This document shows, piece by piece, positions 24,302 to 64,000 of a stretch of 64,000 bases of DNA. Each line of letters begins with the position of its first letter. Positions within the stretch are counted from its first letter, which is position 1. Below the pieces are notes generated by a model. It saw only the letters and a program-made list of their open reading frames with translations. It did no database searches and was not told where the DNA came from. The DNA comes from Candidatus Jacksonbacteria bacterium RIFOXYB2_FULL_44_15 (GTDB lineage: Bacteria > Patescibacteriota > Patescibacteriia > UBA9629). A program made the translations under genes and the position numbers. The stretch spans positions 19,277 to 83,276 of the forward strand of contig MHJY01000005.1 in the NCBI GenBank assembly GCA_001818235.1, given 5' to 3'.

Positions 24302-27300
24302 CTAAATAGCGCTATCAGGGCAAATATTTTTAAAATCGCAAAATTGACAGACGTGCCGATTCGGGGTGGCCTTAAAATCGCGCTGTTTGATTTTTTGCGC
24401 GGCGACGATTAATTTATTTTTAACTTTTTCCATTTCATTCTCGGTACCGATAAAAGAGACACTCCCCTGTTGTAGGTGGTTCAGGTGATAAAAAGTCAAT
24501 TTTTTTGGTGGCGGATTATGATGAGCTAAGGCAATTTGATAAAGCAAGAGTTGTATTTTATCAGCCAGAACCGGTTTGGGATTTAATTTTCCGGTTTTAT
24601 AATCGATAATTTCAATCCCAGAAGCGTCAGGCAGTAAATCGATCCGATCGATCCGGCCCTTGAAGGCAAACTGGTCTAATTTAACGCGAAAATCTTCTTC
24701 CAGATAACGCGGTCGCGGCCAGTTAGCATGGTGCTGATTATAAAATTCTCGCAGAATTTTTTTTCCGGCCGCTAAGTAATCTTGTTTTTGCTGCGCTGTT
24801 TCAAACCAATCATCCTGCCAATTTTTAGCGTATATATTCATAATTTCCGCCAGCGTGATCAACTCCTGATCTTTCGGCGCGACTCCAGTTGCCCCAAATA
24901 AAGAGCTTTGGCTGGCATGGCAACGCATGTTAGTTAGTCGAAATATGGCTAACATCGTCTGGTGCATGGTGCGGCCAAAAGATAGCGTGGCTTTGCCTTT
25001 GTCCTGCGGAATTTTCAGAATGAATTGGTATTTATACTGTAAAGGGCATTTTTCATAAGCCGCGATCTGCGAATAGCTGAATTCCTTAGGTAAAGGGTAA
25101 ATAAATGGCTGGACAGTCGTGTCAGTCTCCAAAGCGGGTCGCAGAAATCCGGCTAAACCGTCATCCTGCCTTAGTTGATCGCCGGACTTTAAAATTTGCG
25201 TTTCAAACAAGAATAGAGATGGCTTAGTTTGACGACGGCCGCCATAATCGAGCGCGCAGGTTAAAAACAGACCGCGTTTGGCCCGGGTCAGCCCGACATA
25301 AAACAAACGGCGCTCTTCTTCAAGGTGTTCATCGCCTTCCGGCAAAATCTCCTTTTCTTTTATTAAGTCAGTCGGCAATTCAATCGCGTCTCCGCGGTTA
25401 ATTGTCGGAAAACGGAGATGGGCTAATCCCGGAATAAAAACATATTTGAATTCCAGTCCTTTAGCGCTGTGGATAGTCATAATTTTAAGCGCTTCCGGAC
25501 CAATATCCTCGACATTATAATTTAAGGCGCCAGTATCGCCAGCTTCCCGCACTAAATTGATGTGCTCAATAAAACCTTTGAGCGAGCGGTCATCATATAT
25601 TTGGCTGTATTCAACGCATTTTTTTAAAAATTGTTTTATAAGCTGGCACTGGGCGCGAGCCTTGGCCGGGGCGGTTTGTTCTAGCGCTAGGATGTGCTCG
25701 CGGTAGCGCGTATCGTGCAGAATTTTAACTAACATTTCAGTCGCGGCTAAGTTTTGACAGACTTTAGCATTGGCGACTAATTGGCTCATGATTTGTTCAA
25801 TCTTTGTTACCGCGTCAACCGTCATCTCTGGTATGGCGCGAACGTTATCCAGAGACTCTTGAAAAGTCCATTTTTTACGGTTGTGCCAGTAATTCAATTT
25901 GAGCAGATCAGCTTCCGGCAAATCAAAACCCGGAATAGCTAAAACTCGGGCCAAAGAAATTGAATCGGCCGGATCTAAGAGCGCGCGGCAATAGGCAAGC
26001 AGATCATTAATCACCGGCTGCAAAAACAAGCCCTGGCTAGCGACAAATAAATATGACATTTTGGCCTGTTCCAGCGCGTTTTTAAACAGGTCAGCTTGGC
26101 GGTTAGCGCGAAGTAAGATGGCGAAATCATTTAAGTTAGTTTCCCTGTCCGACAACAAGCAAGACTGAATTTTGGCGATGATAAAGCTAACTTCGGCCAG
26201 TTCATCGCGACAGAGTTTGAATTCGATTTGGCCTGCCAAGCTGGCGGGCAGGCCGGCGTCGGGAGTGGCGGCGAATAGTTTTTTATCTATTTTTTCAGTT
26301 TTTAAGCCAACCGCCTGACTATAATATTTATCCGGATGATTCAGCTGAAATTCCAGACGATCCGGATTATTATGCTGGATAAAATTATACGCCAGATCAA
26401 GGATATTCTGGCTGGAGCGGTAATTCGCAGTCAGCACGATTTTTTTGGCCGCCGGAAAATCGCGCTTGAAGTTTAAAATATTGCTGACCGAAGCGCCGCG
26501 GAATTTAAAAATCGATTGATCATCGTCGCCAACCACAGTCAGATTGCTCTGGGGATTAGTAAGACATTTAATTAATTGATACTGCGCCAAATTAGTATCC
26601 TGAAATTCATCAATCAAAATATATTTGAACTGTTGCTGATAATTGGCCAAAATATTTGGTCGGTCAGCGAACAGTTTGTTGGTGTAATAAATCAGATCGC
26701 CAAAATCCAATAAATTATTATCAACGAGCAATTGTTGATACTGAAAATAAGCGCTGGCTGTTTCCATAATTTGTTTAGCTCCGAGCGTTGCCGGAGTGTC
26801 GCCAGCCATCGTATTATCCTGATTAGCAGTTAGATTTTCCGCGTAGCGTAAATATTCAGCCGGAGTAATACCTTCGTCTTTGAGGCGCGAGAATAATTTG
26901 ATTAAAGCGTGAATAAATTTAGTCGGATTACCCAGCGGCCGGTAATAATCAAGATTAAATTTATGAAGATTTTTTCGAATGAGTAGCCAGCTGTCAGTGG
27001 TGGCGAGTAAACGGAAGTCCGGCGTCAGGCCGATATCCAAGGCGTGGAGCTCCAGAATCCGCTGGCCAAAGCTGTGAAAAGTGGAAATCCACAGGTCAAA
27101 TAAGCCATAAGGCACAAGTTTATCCACTCGCTCCTCCATCTCAGTCGCGGCTTTGTCGGTAAACGTCAACGCCAAAATTTCAGTCGGTTTAGCCAAACTC
27201 TGTTCAATCAGCCAGGCGATTTTATGCGTAATGACCGTGGTTTTACCAGTGCCAGCGCCGGCGATGATTAACAATGGGCCATTAGTATAAGTAACAGCTT

Positions 27301-27346
27301 TATGTTGTTCTTGGTTGAGTGATTGGAGAAGAGATGTACTTGACAT
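24302..27346 (-). CDS. UvrD/PcrA-family SF1 helicase fused to a C-terminal RecB/Cas4-like PD-(D/E)xK nuclease with a 4-Cys (Fe-S-type) signature
   Basis: GAGTGKTTV (Walker A). The C-terminus has IDRID...IDYKTGK...LLLYQ nuclease motifs, plus Cys in CPLQY and CQFCDFKNIC (C-x2-C-x5-C). Confidence 0.8.
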   Translation of the reverse strand: MSSTSLLQSLNQEQHKAVTYTNGPLLIIAGAGTGKTTVITHKIAWLIEQSLAKPTEILALTFTDKAATEMEERVDKLVPYGLFDLWISTFHSFGQRILELHALDIGLTPDFRLLATTDSWLLIRKNLHKFNLDYYRPLGNPTKFIHALIKLFSRLKDEGITPAEYLRYAENLTANQDNTMAGDTPATLGAKQIMETASAYFQYQQLLVDNNLLDFGDLIYYTNKLFADRPNILANYQQQFKYILIDEFQDTNLAQYQLIKCLTNPQSNLTVVGDDDQSIFKFRGASVSNILNFKRDFPAAKKIVLTANYRSSQNILDLAYNFIQHNNPDRLEFQLNHPDKYYSQAVGLKTEKIDKKLFAATPDAGLPASLAGQIEFKLCRDELAEVSFIIAKIQSCLLSDRETNLNDFAILLRANRQADLFKNALEQAKMSYLFVASQGLFLQPVINDLLAYCRALLDPADSISLARVLAIPGFDLPEADLLKLNYWHNRKKWTFQESLDNVRAIPEMTVDAVTKIEQIMSQLVANAKVCQNLAATEMLVKILHDTRYREHILALEQTAPAKARAQCQLIKQFLKKCVEYSQIYDDRSLKGFIEHINLVREAGDTGALNYNVEDIGPEALKIMTIHSAKGLEFKYVFIPGLAHLRFPTINRGDAIELPTDLIKEKEILPEGDEHLEEERRLFYVGLTRAKRGLFLTCALDYGGRRQTKPSLFLFETQILKSGDQLRQDDGLAGFLRPALETDTTVQPFIYPLPKEFSYSQIAAYEKCPLQYKYQFILKIPQDKGKATLSFGRTMHQTMLAIFRLTNMRCHASQSSLFGATGVAPKDQELITLAEIMNIYAKNWQDDWFETAQQKQDYLAAGKKILREFYNQHHANWPRPRYLEEDFRVKLDQFAFKGRIDRIDLLPDASGIEIIDYKTGKLNPKPVLADKIQLLLYQIALAHHNPPPKKLTFYHLNHLQQGSVSFIGTENEMEKVKNKLIVAAQKIKQRDFKATPNRHVCQFCDFKNICPDSAI

Positions 27347-44523: not shown

Positions 44524-45609
44524 ATGAGCATTAATACCGATATGGCGCAAAAGCCAAAATTGGTTGTTATTCTTGGGCCCACGGCTTCGGGCAAAACGAG
44601 CTTGGCACAGGCGTTGTGTCAAAAATTTTCCGGTTTTATTATTTCCGCTGATTCGCGGCAGGTTTATCGGTATTTGGATATTGGGACAGCAAAAGTAGAG
44701 ACGCCAGCTGATTTACAGTTTTTACGCCGGCAACGGCAAGAAAACTTGGCTGATGGTCGAATTTCCGCGGCAGAATATCTGATCGAGATGCGCGGAATCA
44801 ACAATTATATGATTGATCTGGTAGAGCCGAGTCAGGATTATAATGTGGCGCTGTATCAGAAGGATGTTTATAGCATTTTAATTTCTAATTTTCAATTTCT
44901 AATTTCTAATCAAATTTCAAATTTCAAATTTCAAATGCCTACCTTGCCAACTGGCAGGCGGCAGGCAGGTCAAAAGTCAAATATCTTTTTGGTGGGAGGG
45001 ACGGGTCTCTATATAGATGCGATTGTGGATAACTGGATGTTGCCGGCTGGTGAGCCAGATCTGAAGTTGCGCGAAGTGCTGGAGCGTGAGCTGGAACGCG
45101 ATGGACTTGAGACTCTCTATAATCGCTTGATTAAACTTGATCCAGATTGCGCGTCATTCATTCAAACTAAAAACCCGCGGCGAGTGGTGCGGGCTTTGGA
45201 ATATGTGCTTGCCACTGGAGGCAAATTTTCCGCTGGTCGAGGCAGATCAGAACGTCAATTTAATGTTTTAAAAATCGGTTTTGATTGGCCGAGGCAGGAA
45301 TTGTATCAGCGAATTGATGCCAGCGTGGAGGCGCGAATTAAACTTGGGATGATTGAAGAAGTCGAAGAACTGTTGAAAATGGATGGTTTGAGTTTTGAAC
45401 GTTTACAACAGTTTGGTTTGGAATATCGAGTGATATCAAATTATCTGATAGGAAAAAGCGGATCTTTAGCCGAGCTGATTCAACGGCTCAAATGGGACTC
45501 CCATGCTTATGCCCGTCGCCAGCTCACCTGGTTTCGGCGGGATAAGGAGATTCAGTGGGTCAAAAATGCGGCGGAAGCTGAGAAGTTAGTGGCGGAGTTT
45601 ATTAAATAG
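44524..45609 (+). CDS. miaA: tRNA dimethylallyltransferase
   Basis: LVVILGPTASGKTSLA...IISADSRQVYRYLDIGTAKV...VGGTGLYIDAIV. Contains a ~35-aa repeat-encoded insertion. Confidence 0.85.
   Translation: MSINTDMAQKPKLVVILGPTASGKTSLAQALCQKFSGFIISADSRQVYRYLDIGTAKVETPADLQFLRRQRQENLADGRISAAEYLIEMRGINNYMIDLVEPSQDYNVALYQKDVYSILISNFQFLISNQISNFKFQMPTLPTGRRQAGQKSNIFLVGGTGLYIDAIVDNWMLPAGEPDLKLREVLERELERDGLETLYNRLIKLDPDCASFIQTKNPRRVVRALEYVLATGGKFSAGRGRSERQFNVLKIGFDWPRQELYQRIDASVEARIKLGMIEEVEELLKMDGLSFERLQQFGLEYRVISNYLIGKSGSLAELIQRLKWDSHAYARRQLTWFRRDKEIQWVKNAAEAEKLVAEFIK
44876..44981. repeat. Heptanucleotide AATTTCN / ATTTCAA tandem tracts followed by a GC-rich GGCAGGCGGCAGGCAGG core, inside miaA
   Basis: Seen directly. 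Encodes ILISNFQFLISNQISNFKFQMPTLPTGRRQAGQKS between conserved MiaA blocks. Confidence 0.55.
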
Positions 45610-45610
45610 T

Positions 45611-45657
45611 GGCAAGTATCCCGCCTACGCAAAGGCTTCGGCGGGCAGGCAAGTATC
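45611..45657. repeat. Short element: direct repeats GGCAAGTATC x2 flanking the palindromic GC core CCGCC-tacgcaaaggcttcg-GCGGG, between convergent miaA and tatD
   Basis: Seen directly. Shares the AAGGCTTCGG core with 46332-46393 and 52322-52383, and GGCGGGCAGGC with the pyrC insert. Confidence 0.5.
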
Positions 45658-45666
45658 AAGAACTGG

Positions 45667-46596
45667 TTAATCTTTAATCAAGAAGAATTTTTCCCCATTT
45701 TTTTGCGTCATCTCAATAACTTCAGCCACGCTGATTTTTTTTATGGTAGCAATTTTTTCGGCGACATACTCTACATACAATGGTTCGTTGCGCTGGCCGC
45801 GAAAAGGTTCTGGACTTAAATACGGGCAATCGGTTTCGATCATTAACCGGTCAAGCGGAATTTGGCGGATCGCGTCAATCAAATAGTCGTTAACATTTTT
45901 ATAAGTGATAACGCCGGTTACAGAAATGTAAAAACCAATGTCCAGAAATTTTTGAATGTGCTCAAAGTCGGCTAAACAGCAATGGAGAACGCCGCGAATT
46001 CCGTCATTGCGAGGAATGAGCGAAGCGAATGACGAAGCAATCTCTGATTTTGGGATTGCTTCGCTACGCCTTTCGAACTCCGCTCGCAATGACCGTAACA
46101 AATCATCGTAAGCATCAAACGTATCACCCGTCGGACGGCAGTGAATGACTAAGGGTTTGTTAAGTTCATTAGCCAATTTAACGTGTTCGAGAAATAATTC
46201 GCGTTGAGCGTCATGGTTGTCAGCAACTCTATAATAATCAAGCCCAGTCTCCCCGATCGCCACGACTTTAGGATCACCGGCTAACTCTTTAAATTTTTGA
46301 TAGTCCCAAATGTGAGCCGGATTATTATTTGCATAGATTCCTGCTTTCCCTCCTTCGCACAAGGCTTCGGAAGGGCGCGGCGCAGGAATGACAGAGAGAT
46401 GTGTTGGATGCAAACCGACGGTCGCGAAAATCGGGTCATGTTTAAATTCTTGAGCGATGTCGACAGCTCGCTTCGACGTCGCAAACTCAGTTCCAACCAA
46501 ATTTAAAAACATCCCTTTGGCGAGGGATTTGGTTATTATTTTATGGTAATCTTGGGCGAAGGCTTTAAAGTTTAAATGAGCGTGGGTGTCGTACAT
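45667..46596 (-). CDS. tatD: TatD-family metal-dependent DNase/hydrolase carrying an in-frame 21-aa repeat-element insertion
   Basis: MYDTHAHLNF; ...VAIGETGLDYY. The insertion SVIPAPRPSEALCEGGKAGIY lies between the HP and VVAIGE blocks. Confidence 0.85.
   Translation of the reverse strand: MYDTHAHLNFKAFAQDYHKIITKSLAKGMFLNLVGTEFATSKRAVDIAQEFKHDPIFATVGLHPTHLSVIPAPRPSEALCEGGKAGIYANNNPAHIWDYQKFKELAGDPKVVAIGETGLDYYRVADNHDAQRELFLEHVKLANELNKPLVIHCRPTGDTFDAYDDLLRSLRAEFERRSEAIPKSEIASSFASLIPRNDGIRGVLHCCLADFEHIQKFLDIGFYISVTGVITYKNVNDYLIDAIRQIPLDRLMIETDCPYLSPEPFRGQRNEPLYVEYVAEKIATIKKISVAEVIEMTQKNGEKFFLIKD
46332..46393. repeat. 62-bp palindromic repeat element (copy A) inside the tatD CDS, in frame
   Basis: CATAGATTCCTGC...AAGGCTTCGGAAGGG...GCAGGAATGACA, with terminal inverted repeats. 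About 55/62 identical to copy C at 52322-52383. Confidence 0.65.
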
Positions 46597-48126: not shown

Positions 48127-48906
48127 TTAATCAATTCGTAAAAAGCGTTCGCCGCTTTCTATCCCGATCGTTCCGGTTGCCGTTTGTAATTTTAAAGTAT
48201 AACGTTTTAGACCAAGACCGCAGTTTTTGAAAATGAGCGTGGGGGCAAAAGTGGCAGTCGCCCCATTTTTTATTTGATCCTCTTGGGGCCTGATTGCTCC
48301 GGCGATTTTAAGGCAAGGGTCGGTTGTTTCCAATTTAAGCGCTAAATTTTTTTTCTGCCAACTGCCGGCTGAATTGTTTTTGATTTTAATTGACGCGGTA
48401 ATCTGCCGCCATTTAGATAAAACCGCGACCGGCAGTTTTGTTTCCGTTAAAACCGCTAAGTGAACTGGTTTGACTTCAATAGTTTTATAAAGAGCGCCGC
48501 CTTTGATCGGTTGATTTTTGTAGGTCAATATAAATTTTACATCATAAAGGCCGGAATGGCTAGGGGCGTGGATAACATCGCTAAAGTTTGCGATTTGGCT
48601 GGGTTCGACCGTCGAGATTTCGTGATAATCGATTTCCGCCGGATTAAAGCCAAGCGGATTCCCTTGGCGATCGGTGATTTTTATTTTCAGATAAGTCGAC
48701 TCCCAGCTGATAATGCCCTTATTTTTAAAACTGATCTTAACGCTCAAGAAATTGTTGGGATATGCCCGGGTGTCAATTTTATCGCTAAACCATAAAGCCG
48801 CGCTGTCGCCGGCGAGTTTTAAAAGTTCGATCGGATCTTGGGGCGCAAAATTAGCCGGAGCAGCTGCTTTCAGGGCGCGGCGGCTGTTGATCAGGCCGGC
48901 GCCCAT
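48127..48906 (-). CDS. C-terminal portion of the S8 protease (end of catalytic domain GAGLINSRRALKAA plus beta-rich C-terminal domains), separated from the upstream part by a frameshift
   Basis: Starts 2 nt after the S8 ORF stop, in a different frame. The N-terminus matches the canonical subtilisin GxGxxN...A segment. Confidence 0.55.
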   Translation of the reverse strand: MGAGLINSRRALKAAAPANFAPQDPIELLKLAGDSAALWFSDKIDTRAYPNNFLSVKISFKNKGIISWESTYLKIKITDRQGNPLGFNPAEIDYHEISTVEPSQIANFSDVIHAPSHSGLYDVKFILTYKNQPIKGGALYKTIEVKPVHLAVLTETKLPVAVLSKWRQITASIKIKNNSAGSWQKKNLALKLETTDPCLKIAGAIRPQEDQIKNGATATFAPTLIFKNCGLGLKRYTLKLQTATGTIGIESGERFLRID

Positions 48907-48908
48907 TT

Positions 48909-49988
48909 TTAGAGCGAGATCAGGATTTTGGGCGTCAAGGAATCGGCAGTGTCGGCAATAATCGCGGCGATTTGTTTATTGCTGTAGTTACCGTTAAATG
49001 ATTTGATGAGTGCCGCTAAACCGCTCACTTGGGGCGCCGCAAACGATGTCCCATTCCACAGGCCGCTGTAGGCGGCGTTAAAAGGCTCGCCTAATTTAGG
49101 ATTCATTGTCTGGGTGCTAACCATATCCACGCCTGGCGCGTTGATATCCAAACAAGTCAAACCAAAATTGGAAAAGTCAGCTTTGCTTTTATTTTTATCA
49201 ACCGCGCCGACGCCGATTACCCAGTCGTCTTGAGTGTCACGATAACAGGCCGGATATACTGGCACAGTATCTAAATCGCCGCCGTCGGAAGTGGACAAAG
49301 TGCCGAGCGCGTCATTGCCGACTGCGGCCACGATGACGATGCCTTGTTGATAGGCGTATTTAATGGCTTCCTGTAGTTCGGTGGTATTACTGCGGCCGAC
49401 AAAACTTAAATTGATGATGTCGGCGCCTTCTTTTACGGCGTAACGAATGGCCTGGGCGGCATCACCGGTATAACCTTCGCCGATACTATTTAAAGCGCGC
49501 AGGGCCATGATTTTTGATCGCCAACTGATGCCGGCGATTCCCAGGCCATTATTGCCGCTCCCAGCGATAACGCCGGCGACGAGCGTACCGTGGCTCACCC
49601 CTTCGGTGGAATAATTTTTAAATTGCGGATTTGGGTCATTGTTGTTATCAACAAAATTCCATCCGTAAACATCATCAATATAACCGTTATTATCATCATC
49701 CCTGCCATTATCAGCTATTTCGTCTTGATTTATCCAGATATTGTCTTTTAAATCCGGATGATCCAAATCAACTCCGCTGTCAATTACCGCTATCACTACG
49801 TCCGGCGAACCGACCGAATAGCCCCAAGCTTGGTCGACTTGGGTCATTCCAATATAATATTGCGTATCAAAATGAGGATCGTTAGGAGTAACGGTTAGAG
49901 CTTGGGCAACGGTGGGAATCAATAGAGCTAGTAATAACATCATTCCCAAAGAGGCAGTTCGAGTTTTAGACAAGGTATTAAAAATCAT
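48909..49988 (-). CDS. Subtilisin-like serine protease (peptidase S8), secreted; catalytic domain N-terminal part
   Basis: Signal peptide. VIAVIDSGVDLDHPDL (Asp), HGTLVAGVIAG (His), GTSFAAPQVSGLAALI (Ser). Confidence 0.8.
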   Translation of the reverse strand: MIFNTLSKTRTASLGMMLLLALLIPTVAQALTVTPNDPHFDTQYYIGMTQVDQAWGYSVGSPDVVIAVIDSGVDLDHPDLKDNIWINQDEIADNGRDDDNNGYIDDVYGWNFVDNNNDPNPQFKNYSTEGVSHGTLVAGVIAGSGNNGLGIAGISWRSKIMALRALNSIGEGYTGDAAQAIRYAVKEGADIINLSFVGRSNTTELQEAIKYAYQQGIVIVAAVGNDALGTLSTSDGGDLDTVPVYPACYRDTQDDWVIGVGAVDKNKSKADFSNFGLTCLDINAPGVDMVSTQTMNPKLGEPFNAAYSGLWNGTSFAAPQVSGLAALIKSFNGNYSNKQIAAIIADTADSLTPKILISL

Positions 49989-51696: not shown

Positions 51697-51723
51697 AACG
51701 GAATTACTATTATATGGATTCCT

Positions 51724-51751
51724 GCTTTCGCAGGAATGACAATCAAGTGTA
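51724..51751. repeat. Minimal copy (B) of the palindromic element: only the terminal inverted repeats remain (GGATTCCTGC-tttc-GCAGGAATGACA)
   Basis: Seen directly in the intergenic gap between the lipoprotein gene and the MazG-like gene. Confidence 0.5.
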
Positions 51752-52229: not shown

Positions 52230-52271
52230 AAATTATAGGACTTATGTGTTTAATGAGTAGACATATAATTT

Positions 52272-52297
52272 TGTCATTCCCGCGCAGGCGGGAATCC
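52272..52297. repeat. Minimal inverted copy (C') of the palindromic element (TGTCATTCCCGC-gcag-GCGGGAATCC)
   Basis: Seen directly. 24 bp upstream of the full copy C. Confidence 0.5.
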
Positions 52298-52321
52298 AGT
52301 ATTTAATTTATCTATATAAGT

Positions 52322-52383
52322 CATAGATTCCCGCTTTCCCTCTTACGCTCAAGGCTTCGGAAGGGCATGGCGCGGGAATGACA
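52322..52383. repeat. 62-bp palindromic repeat element (copy C), intergenic
   Basis: CATAGATTCCCGC...AAGGCTTCGGAAGGG...GCGGGAATGACA. About 55/62 identical to copy A. Confidence 0.65.
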
Positions 52384-55476: not shown

Positions 55477-55550
55477 GGTGATAAAAATTTCAATTTAAAC
55501 TAGGTTTGTCATCCCGAGCTTGTCGAGGGATCTCTTACTTGAGCCATTGT

Positions 55551-56015
55551 TTATGAAAGGGATTCCTCGCTAACGCTCGGAATGACAGTTTTGAGATGAC
55601 CGCACTTAATCTTCGATAGATCCGAATTAATAATCACCGGCTTGACCGCCTCGATTTCTGATTTGTAATATTCAATTTTCGGTATCGGATTCAACAAAAA
55701 GATTTTTTTATATAAAATATGGGCAAAGCCGATTTCCATTAATGTATTTCCGCCGATGTAATTTTTGATGCCTCGCCGGTCGTAATTTAAAACCAAGATG
55801 GCGTCGGACTTTTTTATTTCCTTATAAAATTCACGAATCGCGTCTTTTTCGTTTTTGTGATAGACGGTCAGTTTTTCCTTTTCCTTGGTGCTTTTGTCGA
55901 TATAAGCTGGCGCGAAAGAGGAAACAACCGCGCTATGCCCCAGTTTTTCCAATTCTTTTTTTATTTCCAGCATTTTTTCGGTAAAAACCATGCTGGCGCA
56001 AATGGCGATTTTCAT
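55551..56015 (-). CDS. Nucleoside 2-deoxyribosyltransferase / DNPH1-like Rossmann-fold protein
   Basis: MKIAICASMVF...LGH... and GGNTLMEIGFA resemble the PF05014 family G.T..E.G.A motif. The last ~10 codons overlap repeat copy D. Confidence 0.5.
   Translation of the reverse strand: MKIAICASMVFTEKMLEIKKELEKLGHSAVVSSFAPAYIDKSTKEKEKLTVYHKNEKDAIREFYKEIKKSDAILVLNYDRRGIKNYIGGNTLMEIGFAHILYKKIFLLNPIPKIEYYKSEIEAVKPVIINSDLSKIKCGHLKTVIPSVSEESLS
55560..55587. repeat. Short copy (D) of the palindromic element (GGATTCCTCGC-taacgc-TCGGAATGACA)
   Basis: Seen directly. It forms the 3' end of the preceding CDS. Confidence 0.4.
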
Positions 56016-62304: not shown

Positions 62305-62436
62305 TACTCATCAGCTTACTCGATAATGGCGGATTTGACAATGGGGAGGATGGCGCATTACTCGCCTCACCGCTTGACATTATCAGTTATATATTTTGAA
62401 TAAAGCGAGCTTTGGTGATTGTGGATAAGGCTACTT

Positions 62437-62465
62437 TTGATTTTCGGTGGATTTTCGGGTATAAT
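62437..62465 (+). promoter_or_regulatory. Sigma-70-like promoter (TTGATT-17 nt-TATAAT) for the lexA-MTase gene. The spacer contains a direct repeat GATTTTCGG x2. The palindrome TAACTT-acta-AAGTTA at 62504-62519 is a candidate operator.
   Basis: Sequence motifs only. Confidence 0.4.
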
Positions 62466-62526
62466 AAATTCAATATATCATTACTATTTTTTTAGTCAAT
62501 AAATAACTTACTAAAGTTACCCACAT

Positions 62527-64000
62527 ATGCACACACCCACTAAAAAACAAAAACAAATTTTAGATTTCATCACCTCTTACATAAACAAGCATGGCATATC
62601 CCCTACCATAGAGGAAATGTCTAAACACTTCAAACGTGCAGTTGGTACGATTCATGAACACGTAGAAGAATGCGTAAAAAAAGGATGCATTAAAAAAAAT
62701 AGTAATTCTTCGCGCGGCATTGAATTATACAAACAATTCGAAATGATAAAAATTCCGTTGTTGGGCACTATTACCGCCGGCCAACCCATCGAAGCAGTAC
62801 AGGAAAAAGAAACAATCGCCATCGCTAAAGATCGATTGCCGCATTCTGGCAGCTTTTTTGCTTTAAAAGTTACTGGCGATAGTATGATTGAAGAAAATAT
62901 TGCAGATGGTGATTATGTAATTGTAAAACAACAAACAACGGCCGAAAATGGGCAAAAGATTGTGGCACTTATAAACGATAATGATGCAACTTTAAAAAAA
63001 TTTTATAGAGAAAATAACAATATACGATTACAACCTGCAAATCAAAAATTTCAGCCTATTTTTGTTAAACCAGAAAATTTTAAAATCCAGGGTGTCGTTG
63101 TAGATATAATTAAAAACACAAAATTTCAACCAAATGTTATTTTTAAAAAGGAAGAAACCACAGCAACCAAAACCAAAGGGTCCTATAATTTTGAGGATAT
63201 CAAAAGGCTACTAGGCAAACCATATTTTGAAACAGACAATTGTTTTATTTATAACGTGGATTGTTTAAGTGCGATGAAGAAAATTGAAAGAGAAGCCATC
63301 GACCTAACAGTTACAAGTCCTCCGTATAATATCGGAAAGGAATATGAAACCGATAAACCTATACAAGAATATATAGATTGGTGCAAACAATGGATGAATG
63401 AAGTATACGGAATCACAAAACAAAATGGCTCGTTCTGGCTAAATTTAGGTTATTTTGAATTTCCTCAAAAAGCAAAAGCCCTCCCCATTACCTATCTATT
63501 ATGGGATAAAACTCCATTTTATTTAATTCAAGAAGTTGTCTGGAATTATGGCGCCGGAGTGGCAGCGAAGAAATTTTTATCTCCACGCAATGAAAAATTT
63601 CTTTGGTACGTGAAAAATCGAGAAAATTATTTATTTAATCTTGATAATATAAGAGATAAAAATGTTAAATATCCCAACCAAAAGAAAAATGGCAGACTAA
63701 GATGTAATCCGCTTGGCAAAAATCCCTCAGATGTGTGGCAGATACAAAAAGTTACATCTGGTAAAGATAGGAGCTCAAAAGAAAGAACTGAACACCCAGC
63801 ACAGTTTCCCGAGGCTTTAATTGATAGGATCATTTTAGCATCGAGTAACAAAAAAGAAGTCATATTAGACCCCTTCTTAGGTTCTGGCACTTCTGCCATC
63901 TCTGCTTTAAAGAATGAAAGAAAGATTATTGGCTTTGAAATTTCAAAAAAATATTGTGGGATCGCCGAACAAAGAATAATAAAGTTACTAGAAAATCAGA
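62527..64000 (+). CDS. LexA-like repressor (wHTH + S24 autopeptidase) fused in frame to a pfam01555-type SPPY (likely N4-cytosine) DNA methyltransferase; 3'-partial (runs off window)
   Basis: ATG 62527. No stop through 64000 (491 codons, checked by hand). It is absent from the ORF track because it is open-ended. The LexA NTD is QKQILDFI...HGISPTIEEM...SRGIELY, with cleavage site LLGTITAGQPI and catalytic VTGDSM...ATLKKF. The MTase has TVTSPPYNIG (motif IV) and ILDPFLGSGTSA (motif I). Confidence 0.75.
   Translation, partial: MHTPTKKQKQILDFITSYINKHGISPTIEEMSKHFKRAVGTIHEHVEECVKKGCIKKNSNSSRGIELYKQFEMIKIPLLGTITAGQPIEAVQEKETIAIAKDRLPHSGSFFALKVTGDSMIEENIADGDYVIVKQQTTAENGQKIVALINDNDATLKKFYRENNNIRLQPANQKFQPIFVKPENFKIQGVVVDIIKNTKFQPNVIFKKEETTATKTKGSYNFEDIKRLLGKPYFETDNCFIYNVDCLSAMKKIEREAIDLTVTSPPYNIGKEYETDKPIQEYIDWCKQWMNEVYGITKQNGSFWLNLGYFEFPQKAKALPITYLLWDKTPFYLIQEVVWNYGAGVAAKKFLSPRNEKFLWYVKNRENYLFNLDNIRDKNVKYPNQKKNGRLRCNPLGKNPSDVWQIQKVTSGKDRSSKERTEHPAQFPEALIDRIILASSNKKEVILDPFLGSGTSAISALKNERKIIGFEISKKYCGIAEQRIIKLLENQ

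Follow-up and report, generated by a model that had tools for sequence, protein, structure and literature searches.

How did a 62-nt palindromic repeat come to lie, in frame, within the tatD gene of a bacterium of the Candidate Phyla Radiation (CPR), and what kind of element is it? The locus belongs to Candidatus Jacksonbacteria bacterium RIFOXYB2_FULL_44_15, and we analysed a 64,000-nt stretch of its contig MHJY01000005.1 (assembly GCA_001818235.1, positions 19,277 to 83,276), here called the window. An earlier note on this stretch had described two 62-bp copies, identical at 55 of 62 positions, one in tatD and one intergenic; a repeat finder returned this pair at the same coordinates, 46332-46393 and 52322-52383 (89% identity, 55/62). 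The 62-nt element consists of one DNA hairpin nested in another: the outer one is a hairpin of canonical Neisseria Transformation Sequence (NTS)/dRS3 type, and in its apical loop lies a second hairpin of about 33 nt. By alignment, the tatD copy is an in-frame, translated insertion absent from the nearest homologues. It is probable, though short of firm, that these repeats are nested hairpins of NTS/dRS3 type from a family related to the Ssn nuclease system, with insertion into coding sequences similar to that of Rickettsia palindromic elements (RPEs).

Insertions in tatD

The gene and the features discussed first are located as follows.

45667..46596, minus strand: tatD, encoding a TatD-family hydrolase of 309 aa (PF01026, E 2e-69), which carries both insertions
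46332..46393, minus strand: copy A, a nested (long-form) NTS-type hairpin within tatD
46003..46093: second tatD insertion, a convergent doublet of two 40-nt GTCATTGCGAG...GAAGCAATC units (46003-46042 on the plus strand, 46054-46093 on the minus strand)
52322..52383, minus strand: copy C, an intergenic long form in the spacer between parA and a DUF4430 gene

Copy A extends from base 3 of codon 68 to base 1 of codon 89 of tatD (peptide SVIPAPRPSEALCEGGKAGIY). Read in frame as (S)VIPAPRPSEALCEGGKAGIY, it contributes 21 extra residues. TatD proteins were compared in an alignment of 24 sequences. In the nearest homologues, P0003-P0009 (47-51% identical by BLASTP), the HPxHL block joins xxxxxxHxWDY directly, with zero residues at the site of copy A. 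The Thermotoga TatD (PDB 1j6o) contains neither this segment nor the second insert. The proposal that other TatD proteins have no such segment thus holds for 1j6o and for the nearest homologues. The closest homologue, P0002, has an unrelated low-complexity insert, SKFKIQNSKLQFKIQN, in the same loop, and therefore the site is permissive. More distant homologues have unrelated loops of 15-20 residues there.

All residues invariant across the alignment, including the conserved His, Glu and Asp positions, are kept. An AlphaFold model built from the alignment has a mean predicted local distance difference test score (pLDDT) of 87.8. The score falls below 50 only at residues 70-90, which are the copy A insert, and at residues 189-197. 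Copy A had been expected to add a surface loop, and its segment is indeed modelled as a disordered one. Judging from this model, both insertions are probably extra, disordered loops on an otherwise intact TIM barrel.

The second insertion is larger and had been missed by the earlier note. It folds as a 91-nt palindrome (z -5.5 to -6.2), and its product, SLRAEFERRSEAIPKSEIASSFASLIPRND, adds about 30 residues that are not present in homologues.

Hairpins can disturb assembly, and two assemblies are gapped at copy C, which raises the question of an assembly or chimeric-read artefact; the loops of the distant homologues similarly raise that of a native TatD loop resembling the repeat. Both are very improbable. 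The tatD protein and locus are identical in GCA_001818275.1, GCA_003531545.1 and ENA and JGI assemblies (50 index blocks). The ENA and JGI assemblies come from groundwater of the Rifle aquifer; the records bear the names Candidatus Jacksonbacteria or Parcubacteria GW2011_GWA2_42_28, and six sibling loci are near base-identical to the window across 20 kb. Since the same sequence is found in at least six independent assemblies of one Candidatus Jacksonbacteria population, the element is not an artefact, a possibility that had been named as one that would undo the proposal. As for a native loop, copy A is 89% identical to an intergenic copy, and the nearest homologues are loop-free at this site.

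The 62-nt repeat as a nested hairpin

The NTS consensus, CGTCATTCCCGCGMAVGCGGGAATCYRG, includes the dRS3 pattern ATTCCC-N8-GGGAAT (Chenal et al. 2025, Nat Commun 16:2388, PMC11893778). The same study defined a degenerate Ssn-related motif (SRM), HGTCWYN(0-2)YYVSBRHN(0-5)WNVSBRGN(0-2)RNCYNB. SsnA is a single-domain GIY-YIG nuclease (cd10448 type) of 94 residues that binds the hairpin solely as single-stranded DNA and cuts a few bases upstream of it; the ssn gene usually lies between two hairpins (PMC11893778). The following units of the window are relevant to the comparison.

52271..52298, plus strand: copy C', canonical short hairpin TGTCATTCCCGCGCAGGCGGGAATCCAG
51715..51742, minus strand: copy B, short hairpin GTCATTCCTGCGAAAGCAGGAATC with a compensated change of a stem C-G pair to T-A
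52338..52370, minus strand: inner module of copy C, 33 nt
45611..45657, minus strand: element E, a solo inner module, CCCGCC-GAA-GC-CTTT-GC-GTA-GGCGGG, without NTS arms
55508..55586: convergent doublet F/D
55508-55532, plus strand: unit F, GTCATCCCGAGC...GGGATC
55561-55586, minus strand: unit D, GTCATTCCGAGCGTTAGCGAGGAATC

The NTS consensus matches window positions 52272-52299 (copy C') at 27/28 positions, with no matches in 100 shuffles, and copy C' also fits the dRS3 pattern. Among the copies it alone satisfies the SRM expression, for which 0.16 matches are expected by chance; copy B falls outside the expression owing to its T-A stem variant. Copies A and C retain both NTS arms intact around a 33-nt insert in the loop. 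Because copy C' matches NTS at 27/28 positions and copy B is the same hairpin, the ends that had been described as terminal inverted repeats of a miniature mobile element are the 8-bp stem of a known hairpin. For the same reason the short copies, formerly taken for derivatives, are the canonical form, and it is the 62-nt form that is derived and nested. These short copies are present, although the coordinates given for copy B, 51724-51751, were wrong by about 9 nt. The claimed D (55560-55587) and E (45611-45657) were likewise recovered.

Copies A and C share the layout GTCATTCCYGCG + ~33 nt + AAAGCRGGAATC; on the minus strand, copy A reads TGTCATTCCTGCG, then the 33-nt inner hairpin, then AAAGCAGGAATCTATG. 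In the outer hairpin, the stem of 8 bp (ATTCCYGC/GCRGGAAT) is flanked by GTC on its 5' side and by C on its 3' side. The C-to-T variant of the stem is matched by G-to-A, and the oriented arms are identical in copies A, B and C. All eight hairpin units of the window have this oriented form, a palindromic stem with non-palindromic GTC and C flanks. Within the inner module, a stem of 6 bp is followed by a GAA/GAA internal loop, then by a GC/GC step and a small loop. In short forms B and C' a stem of 8 bp closes a loop of 4 nt, and their folding is far stronger than that of shuffles (z -4.5 and -5.1, 0/200). The folding of the 62-nt copies in isolation is not significantly above that of shuffles (z -0.1 to -2.1).

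The nested structure is supported by covariation. The search pattern for the long form fixed the 5' arm and CCGAAGCCTT and left the 3' half unconstrained. It retrieved 28 loci in bacterial genomes, taken as one genome per species, and 56 loci in metagenomes. A few matches are due to chance and lie in ordinary genes. The genome loci span Patescibacteria groups, Rickettsiales, Rhodospirillaceae, Planctomycetota and others. The complete long forms comprise 47 distinct sequences, in which the unconstrained 3' halves complete both stems. In the 43 of these 47 sequences that were used for covariation, 97.3% of cells are paired, and pairing falls to 30-53% in shifted registers. Double-change cells number 19, versus 3.7 in shuffles (0/500), and both stems covary (pair readings CG35/UA6 and UA25/CG7/AU3/GC1). 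In this structure CTTCGG belongs to a stem plus a symmetric internal loop, and the C(UUCG)G tetraloop that had been read from it is not supported. The NTS/SRM hairpin family is thus spread over many bacterial phyla and is not confined to CPR. The suggestion of a dispersed hairpin-repeat family is therefore correct, whereas the family is not new, having been described already (PMC11893778).

The intergenic copies occupy short spacers where genes end (convergent genes around E, co-directional ones around B, C/C' and F/D), and the short forms are stable hairpins. They might thus be host regulatory structures, terminators or mRNA-stabilising stem-loops, the coding copies being incidental. We consider this unlikely as their origin. 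The hairpins are not followed by a T-run, and copies of one sequence are met in either orientation, also within the coding regions of unrelated genes. Near-identity across phyla is unexpected for ordinary terminators. SsnA does not bind the RNA form of the hairpin (PMC11893778), and an Rfam search of the window returned one tRNA and no other family, leaving the hairpins unmatched. A regulatory role could, however, co-exist with the NTS/dRS3 account as an exaptation.

The inner module is polymorphic between assemblies at one locus, copy C, where the window and three ENA assemblies contain it. In GCA_001818275.1 the 33-nt module is missing, and copy C is there a plain hairpin, GTCATTCCCGCGAAAGCGGGAATC. 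N-runs lie precisely at the module boundaries in two further assemblies; an assembly-graph bubble of two co-existing alleles would give such gaps. Over the ~60 kb compared among the sibling assemblies, this module is the sole multi-base indel. The inner modules of copies A and C differ at 5/33 positions, and thus copy A is not a recent donor of the copy C module. The module also occurs by itself, as element E between the convergent genes miaA and tatD, and as a second solo module in locus L001. Element E is bracketed by a perfect 10-nt direct repeat, GGCAAGTATC. This repeat is the sole hint of target-site duplication in the family.

One possibility is that the 62-nt repeat is a MITE (miniature transposable element with inverted repeats), that is, a 62-bp mobile unit whose ends are terminal inverted repeats for a transposase and whose short copies are decayed derivatives. 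Like MITEs such as the Correia elements, these are small non-autonomous repeats able to disrupt genes or fuse with them. The two near-identical 62-nt copies with inverted ends, the DDE transposase gene ~1.1 kb past the window end and the direct repeats at element E, which resemble a target duplication, are consistent with this explanation. We nevertheless hold it to be improbable. The ends alone form a complete hairpin of 24-28 nt conserved across phyla (27/28 to NTS), and what separates the long form from the short is one clean internal module of 33 nt. Direct repeats do not flank copies A and C. The flanks of the arms are asymmetric and oriented (GTC...C), unlike symmetric terminal inverted repeats, so that the unit is a single hairpin and not two transposase-binding ends. 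No insertion sequence ends matching the element were found, the ends of the nearby DDE transposase not being among those compared.

Ssn genes, coding copies and the spread of the hairpins

The link to Ssn comes from related contigs. L090/L097, which stem from the same aquifer project, contain a full hairpin-ssn-hairpin cassette around a GIY-YIG gene of 103-118 aa. This gene is preceded by GTCATTCCCGCGAAAGCGGGAATCTATACAAATAGTAAT (GTCATTCCCGCGAAAGCGGGAATCTAT...) in the gene's own orientation, its 3' end is overlapped by an inverted copy of the hairpin, and three more hairpins follow. A long form 5 kb from this gene differs from copy A at 2/57 positions. The same arrangement surrounds a GIY-YIG gene in L005, with hairpins of the GTCATTGCGAG and GTCATTCCGAG types, both of which are also present in the window. 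A homology search from the L090 protein (P0125) produced more than 7,900 relatives, the top ones being 63-77% identical; named top relatives belong to several phyla, including a CPR lineage. None of the more than 7,900 relatives carries a Jacksonbacteria label. NCBIfam contains no model for the Ssn-type GIY-YIG family.

Adjacent hairpins in the Jacksonbacteria contig are convergent in 6/6 pairs, copies C and C' forming one of these doublets. As they occur in the window, these doublets resemble a hairpin-ssn-hairpin cassette devoid of its gene.

Such doublets, which form larger hairpins, are also a hallmark of REPINs, and the elements might accordingly be of the repetitive extragenic palindromic (REP)/REPIN type, moved not by Ssn but by a REP-associated tyrosine transposase (RAYT) similar to the Y1 transposases of IS200/IS605. 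Both systems involve short GC-rich hairpins, a mechanism presumed to act on hairpins in single-stranded DNA and a small gene flanked by its own repeats, and the analogy was drawn by the Ssn authors themselves (PMC11893778). Support for this explanation would come from a RAYT gene with GTCATTCC hairpins on either side. However, the hairpin sequence differs from that of REPs and is the one biochemically shown to be bound by SsnA (PMC11893778). In related contigs these exact hairpins surround GIY-YIG nuclease genes and not a Y1 transposase gene, and no Y1 transposase domain was observed among the called genes of the window and its flanks (~80 kb). Moreover, REPs are extragenic by definition, whereas these hairpins are often intragenic. 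A RAYT-driven origin therefore seems a poor candidate.

Roughly one in three copies on this contig is located in a coding sequence. Elsewhere, the long form was found in frame in the middle of genes encoding MreB (L020), TruB (L026), RNase HII (L091) and Wzy_C ligase (L064). These four host genes were verified by Pfam; their contigs are metagenomic or from uncultured genomes. The MreB copy is in the same frame as the tatD copy. The RNase HII copy is on the opposite strand, beside a short NTS. As at least three frames or orientations are used across the host genes, the peptide is not the selected entity. We also considered whether the element is specially built for translation. This was dropped, since the count of its stop-free frames is not above that of composition-matched shuffles.

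Under the NTS/dRS3 account, the copies would spread, or would have spread, aided by a nuclease of Ssn type whose substrate is the hairpin extruded in single-stranded DNA, and the inner module would be gained or lost at the exposed loop. Many copies landed in coding sequence because the genome has very little intergenic space. Those in coding regions would be kept through selection alone, without use to the protein. The survivors keep the frame, contain no stop codon and lie in surface loops.

The window hairpins resemble NTS/SRM elements in being the same oriented hairpin with an 8-bp stem and GTC and C flanks, and in being multi-copy and clustered. The hairpin-gene-hairpin cassette is shared too, here in related contigs, and extensions of the loop were shown by Chenal et al. 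to be tolerated in vitro (PMC11893778). The differences are as follows. The host is a CPR bacterium, a group unmentioned in the main text of PMC11893778. The conserved 33-nt inner hairpin makes the 62-nt form undetectable by the published expression. The coding share of the copies on this contig is about a third, as against 2% intragenic NTS in N. meningitidis (PMC11893778).

Several observations weigh against this account. No GIY-YIG gene was found by regular-expression and phmmer searches of the 64-kb window, nor in the ~8 kb on either side read from sibling assemblies, which together are the DNA of this genome that was examined. An Ssn-like gene was observed near only 2 of ~75 long-form loci, without clear enrichment. 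The L090 and L005 proteins are assigned at the level of Pfam GIY-YIG, for L090 via the precomputed PF01541 match of P0125. The 62-nt copies fail the SRM expression, in which the loop is at most 5 nt. The multiplication of NTS-type hairpins is unexplained even in Neisseria (PMC11893778). The short allele of copy C in GCA_001818275.1 is possibly a product of gap closure and not a natural allele. Around the second insert in tatD, some native residues are apparently replaced and not just interrupted. Finally, a close relative with an empty site is not at hand, and the term insertion is based on alignment: among more than 7,700 TatD relatives the next-nearest is 53% identical, the named ones being Patescibacteria or Jacksonbacteria.

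RPEs (Ogata et al. 2000, 2002) are ~100-150 bp long and comprise ten families specific to Rickettsia (PMC10969869). The likeness to them that had been proposed is borne out at the level of behaviour. In both cases palindromic repeats lie in frame in unrelated housekeeping genes, are translated and are tolerated where the fold allows it, as seen here in the two tatD inserts and in the MreB, TruB, RNase HII and Wzy_C genes. Size and host set the two apart: the element described here is 62-63 nt long, consists of a 24-28-nt hairpin with a nested module, occurs across phyla and has Candidatus Jacksonbacteria as its host. Rickettsia is listed among the genomes rich in SRM motifs (PMC11893778), so that a link between Ssn and RPEs is possible. 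Literature searches on palindromic coding insertions in CPR or Patescibacteria produced nothing relevant. The statement that no equivalent had been reported from CPR is thus uncontradicted as regards such insertions, but the hairpin family itself is known and crosses phyla.

Three points go beyond the published description: the nested form is conserved and its inner hairpin possibly mobile, the family occurs in a CPR genome, and in-frame coding copies are tolerated at a high rate. If the account is correct, it joins the Ssn nuclease-hairpin system, described mainly in Neisseria and reported to be almost never intragenic, with the Rickettsia puzzle of palindromic DNA in genes. The published motif search is blind to a part of the family, as the nested form escapes its expression. 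Extra loops in TatD, MreB, TruB and RNase HII of CPR bacteria may be repeat-derived and not functional, which bears on annotation and structure prediction. The copy C locus, where both alleles, with and without the inner hairpin, apparently exist in a natural population, provides a testable case of turnover. A bolder version is conceivable but doubtful: the 33-nt inner hairpin would be independently mobile, among the smallest such elements known, entering and leaving NTS-type apical loops in single-stranded DNA, and Ssn-linked hairpins would be a major, still active source of lineage-specific peptide insertions in CPR housekeeping proteins. The same Ssn-hairpin system might then underlie RPEs too.

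Other hairpins and neighbouring genes

All eight GC-rich units that open with GTCAT and close with ATC (8/8 in the window) lie at 46.0-55.6 kb. None was observed in the first 45 kb, which contain the ribosomal protein operon and tRNA synthetase genes. In Neisseria, NTS have been reported to cluster likewise, and here all eight hairpin units are within 10 kb. The final 11 codons of the deoxyribosyltransferase-like gene, VIPSVSEESLS, come from unit D, and the stop codon follows. Just past the window end, on the same contig, are two further doublets of the F/D type and a third long form of 57 nt (L035 3443-3499). A gene encoding a MiaB-like radical SAM protein of 543 residues, 3-4 kb past the window end, contains a convergent doublet (L035 5136-5285) made of nested GTCATTCCGAGCG... 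and GTCATCCCGAGC... hairpins.

Several hairpins are trailed, directly before a start codon, by AT-rich tails (CTATRCAAATAGTAAT-like, with TATAAT-like hexamers). CTATRCAAATAGTAAT-like tails were found at the following places.

46375-46320, minus strand: tail in the copy A region
51717-51690: tail in the copy B region
L090: tail upstream of the GIY-YIG gene

Such a tail may belong to the element, or it may act as a promoter facing outward. The MazG-like gene probably starts shortly downstream of copy B. The 3' tail of copy A, CTATGCAAATAATAAT, agrees at 16/18 positions with the one trailing the hairpin that lies upstream of the L090 ssn gene. We did not assign it to the element, given the AT-richness of the region and the similar residues that homologues show at this place.

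The gene at 62305-64000 encodes LexA-like and N6/N4 methyltransferase domains and continues past the window end. Beside it (L035/L036 6360-9778) are a ScaI-type restriction enzyme gene, a DDE transposase gene and a helix-turn-helix (HTH) gene. As these restriction, methyltransferase, transposase and HTH genes adjoin the hairpin-rich stretch, the latter borders a mobile or defence island.

In miaA (44524-45609, plus strand), a stretch of ~40-47 residues (ISNFQFLISNQISNFKFQMPTLPTGRRQAGQ...) at 44866-44975 lies between two Pfam matches. It is composed of AT-rich tandem repeats of the AATTTC type followed by the GC-rich hairpin GCCTACCTTGCCAACTGGCAGGCGGCAGGCAGG, and resembles a third type of repeat inserted in frame. 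The TatD homologue P0002 contains a similar peptide, SKFKIQN. A perfect 8-bp GC hairpin, GGCCTGCC-AAGCTGGCG-GGCAGGCC, was observed at 26230-26254 in the UvrD-like helicase gene (24302-27346, minus strand), where it encodes AGLPASLAGQ. This hairpin is possibly one more small repeat in frame, with a relationship to the miaA motif GGCAGG.

At position 48936, the window has one base fewer than 6/6 sibling assemblies. The loss splits a Peptidase_S8 gene of 620 residues into open reading frames at 48127-48906 and 48909-49988, and is either a sequencing or assembly error or a strain-specific frameshift.

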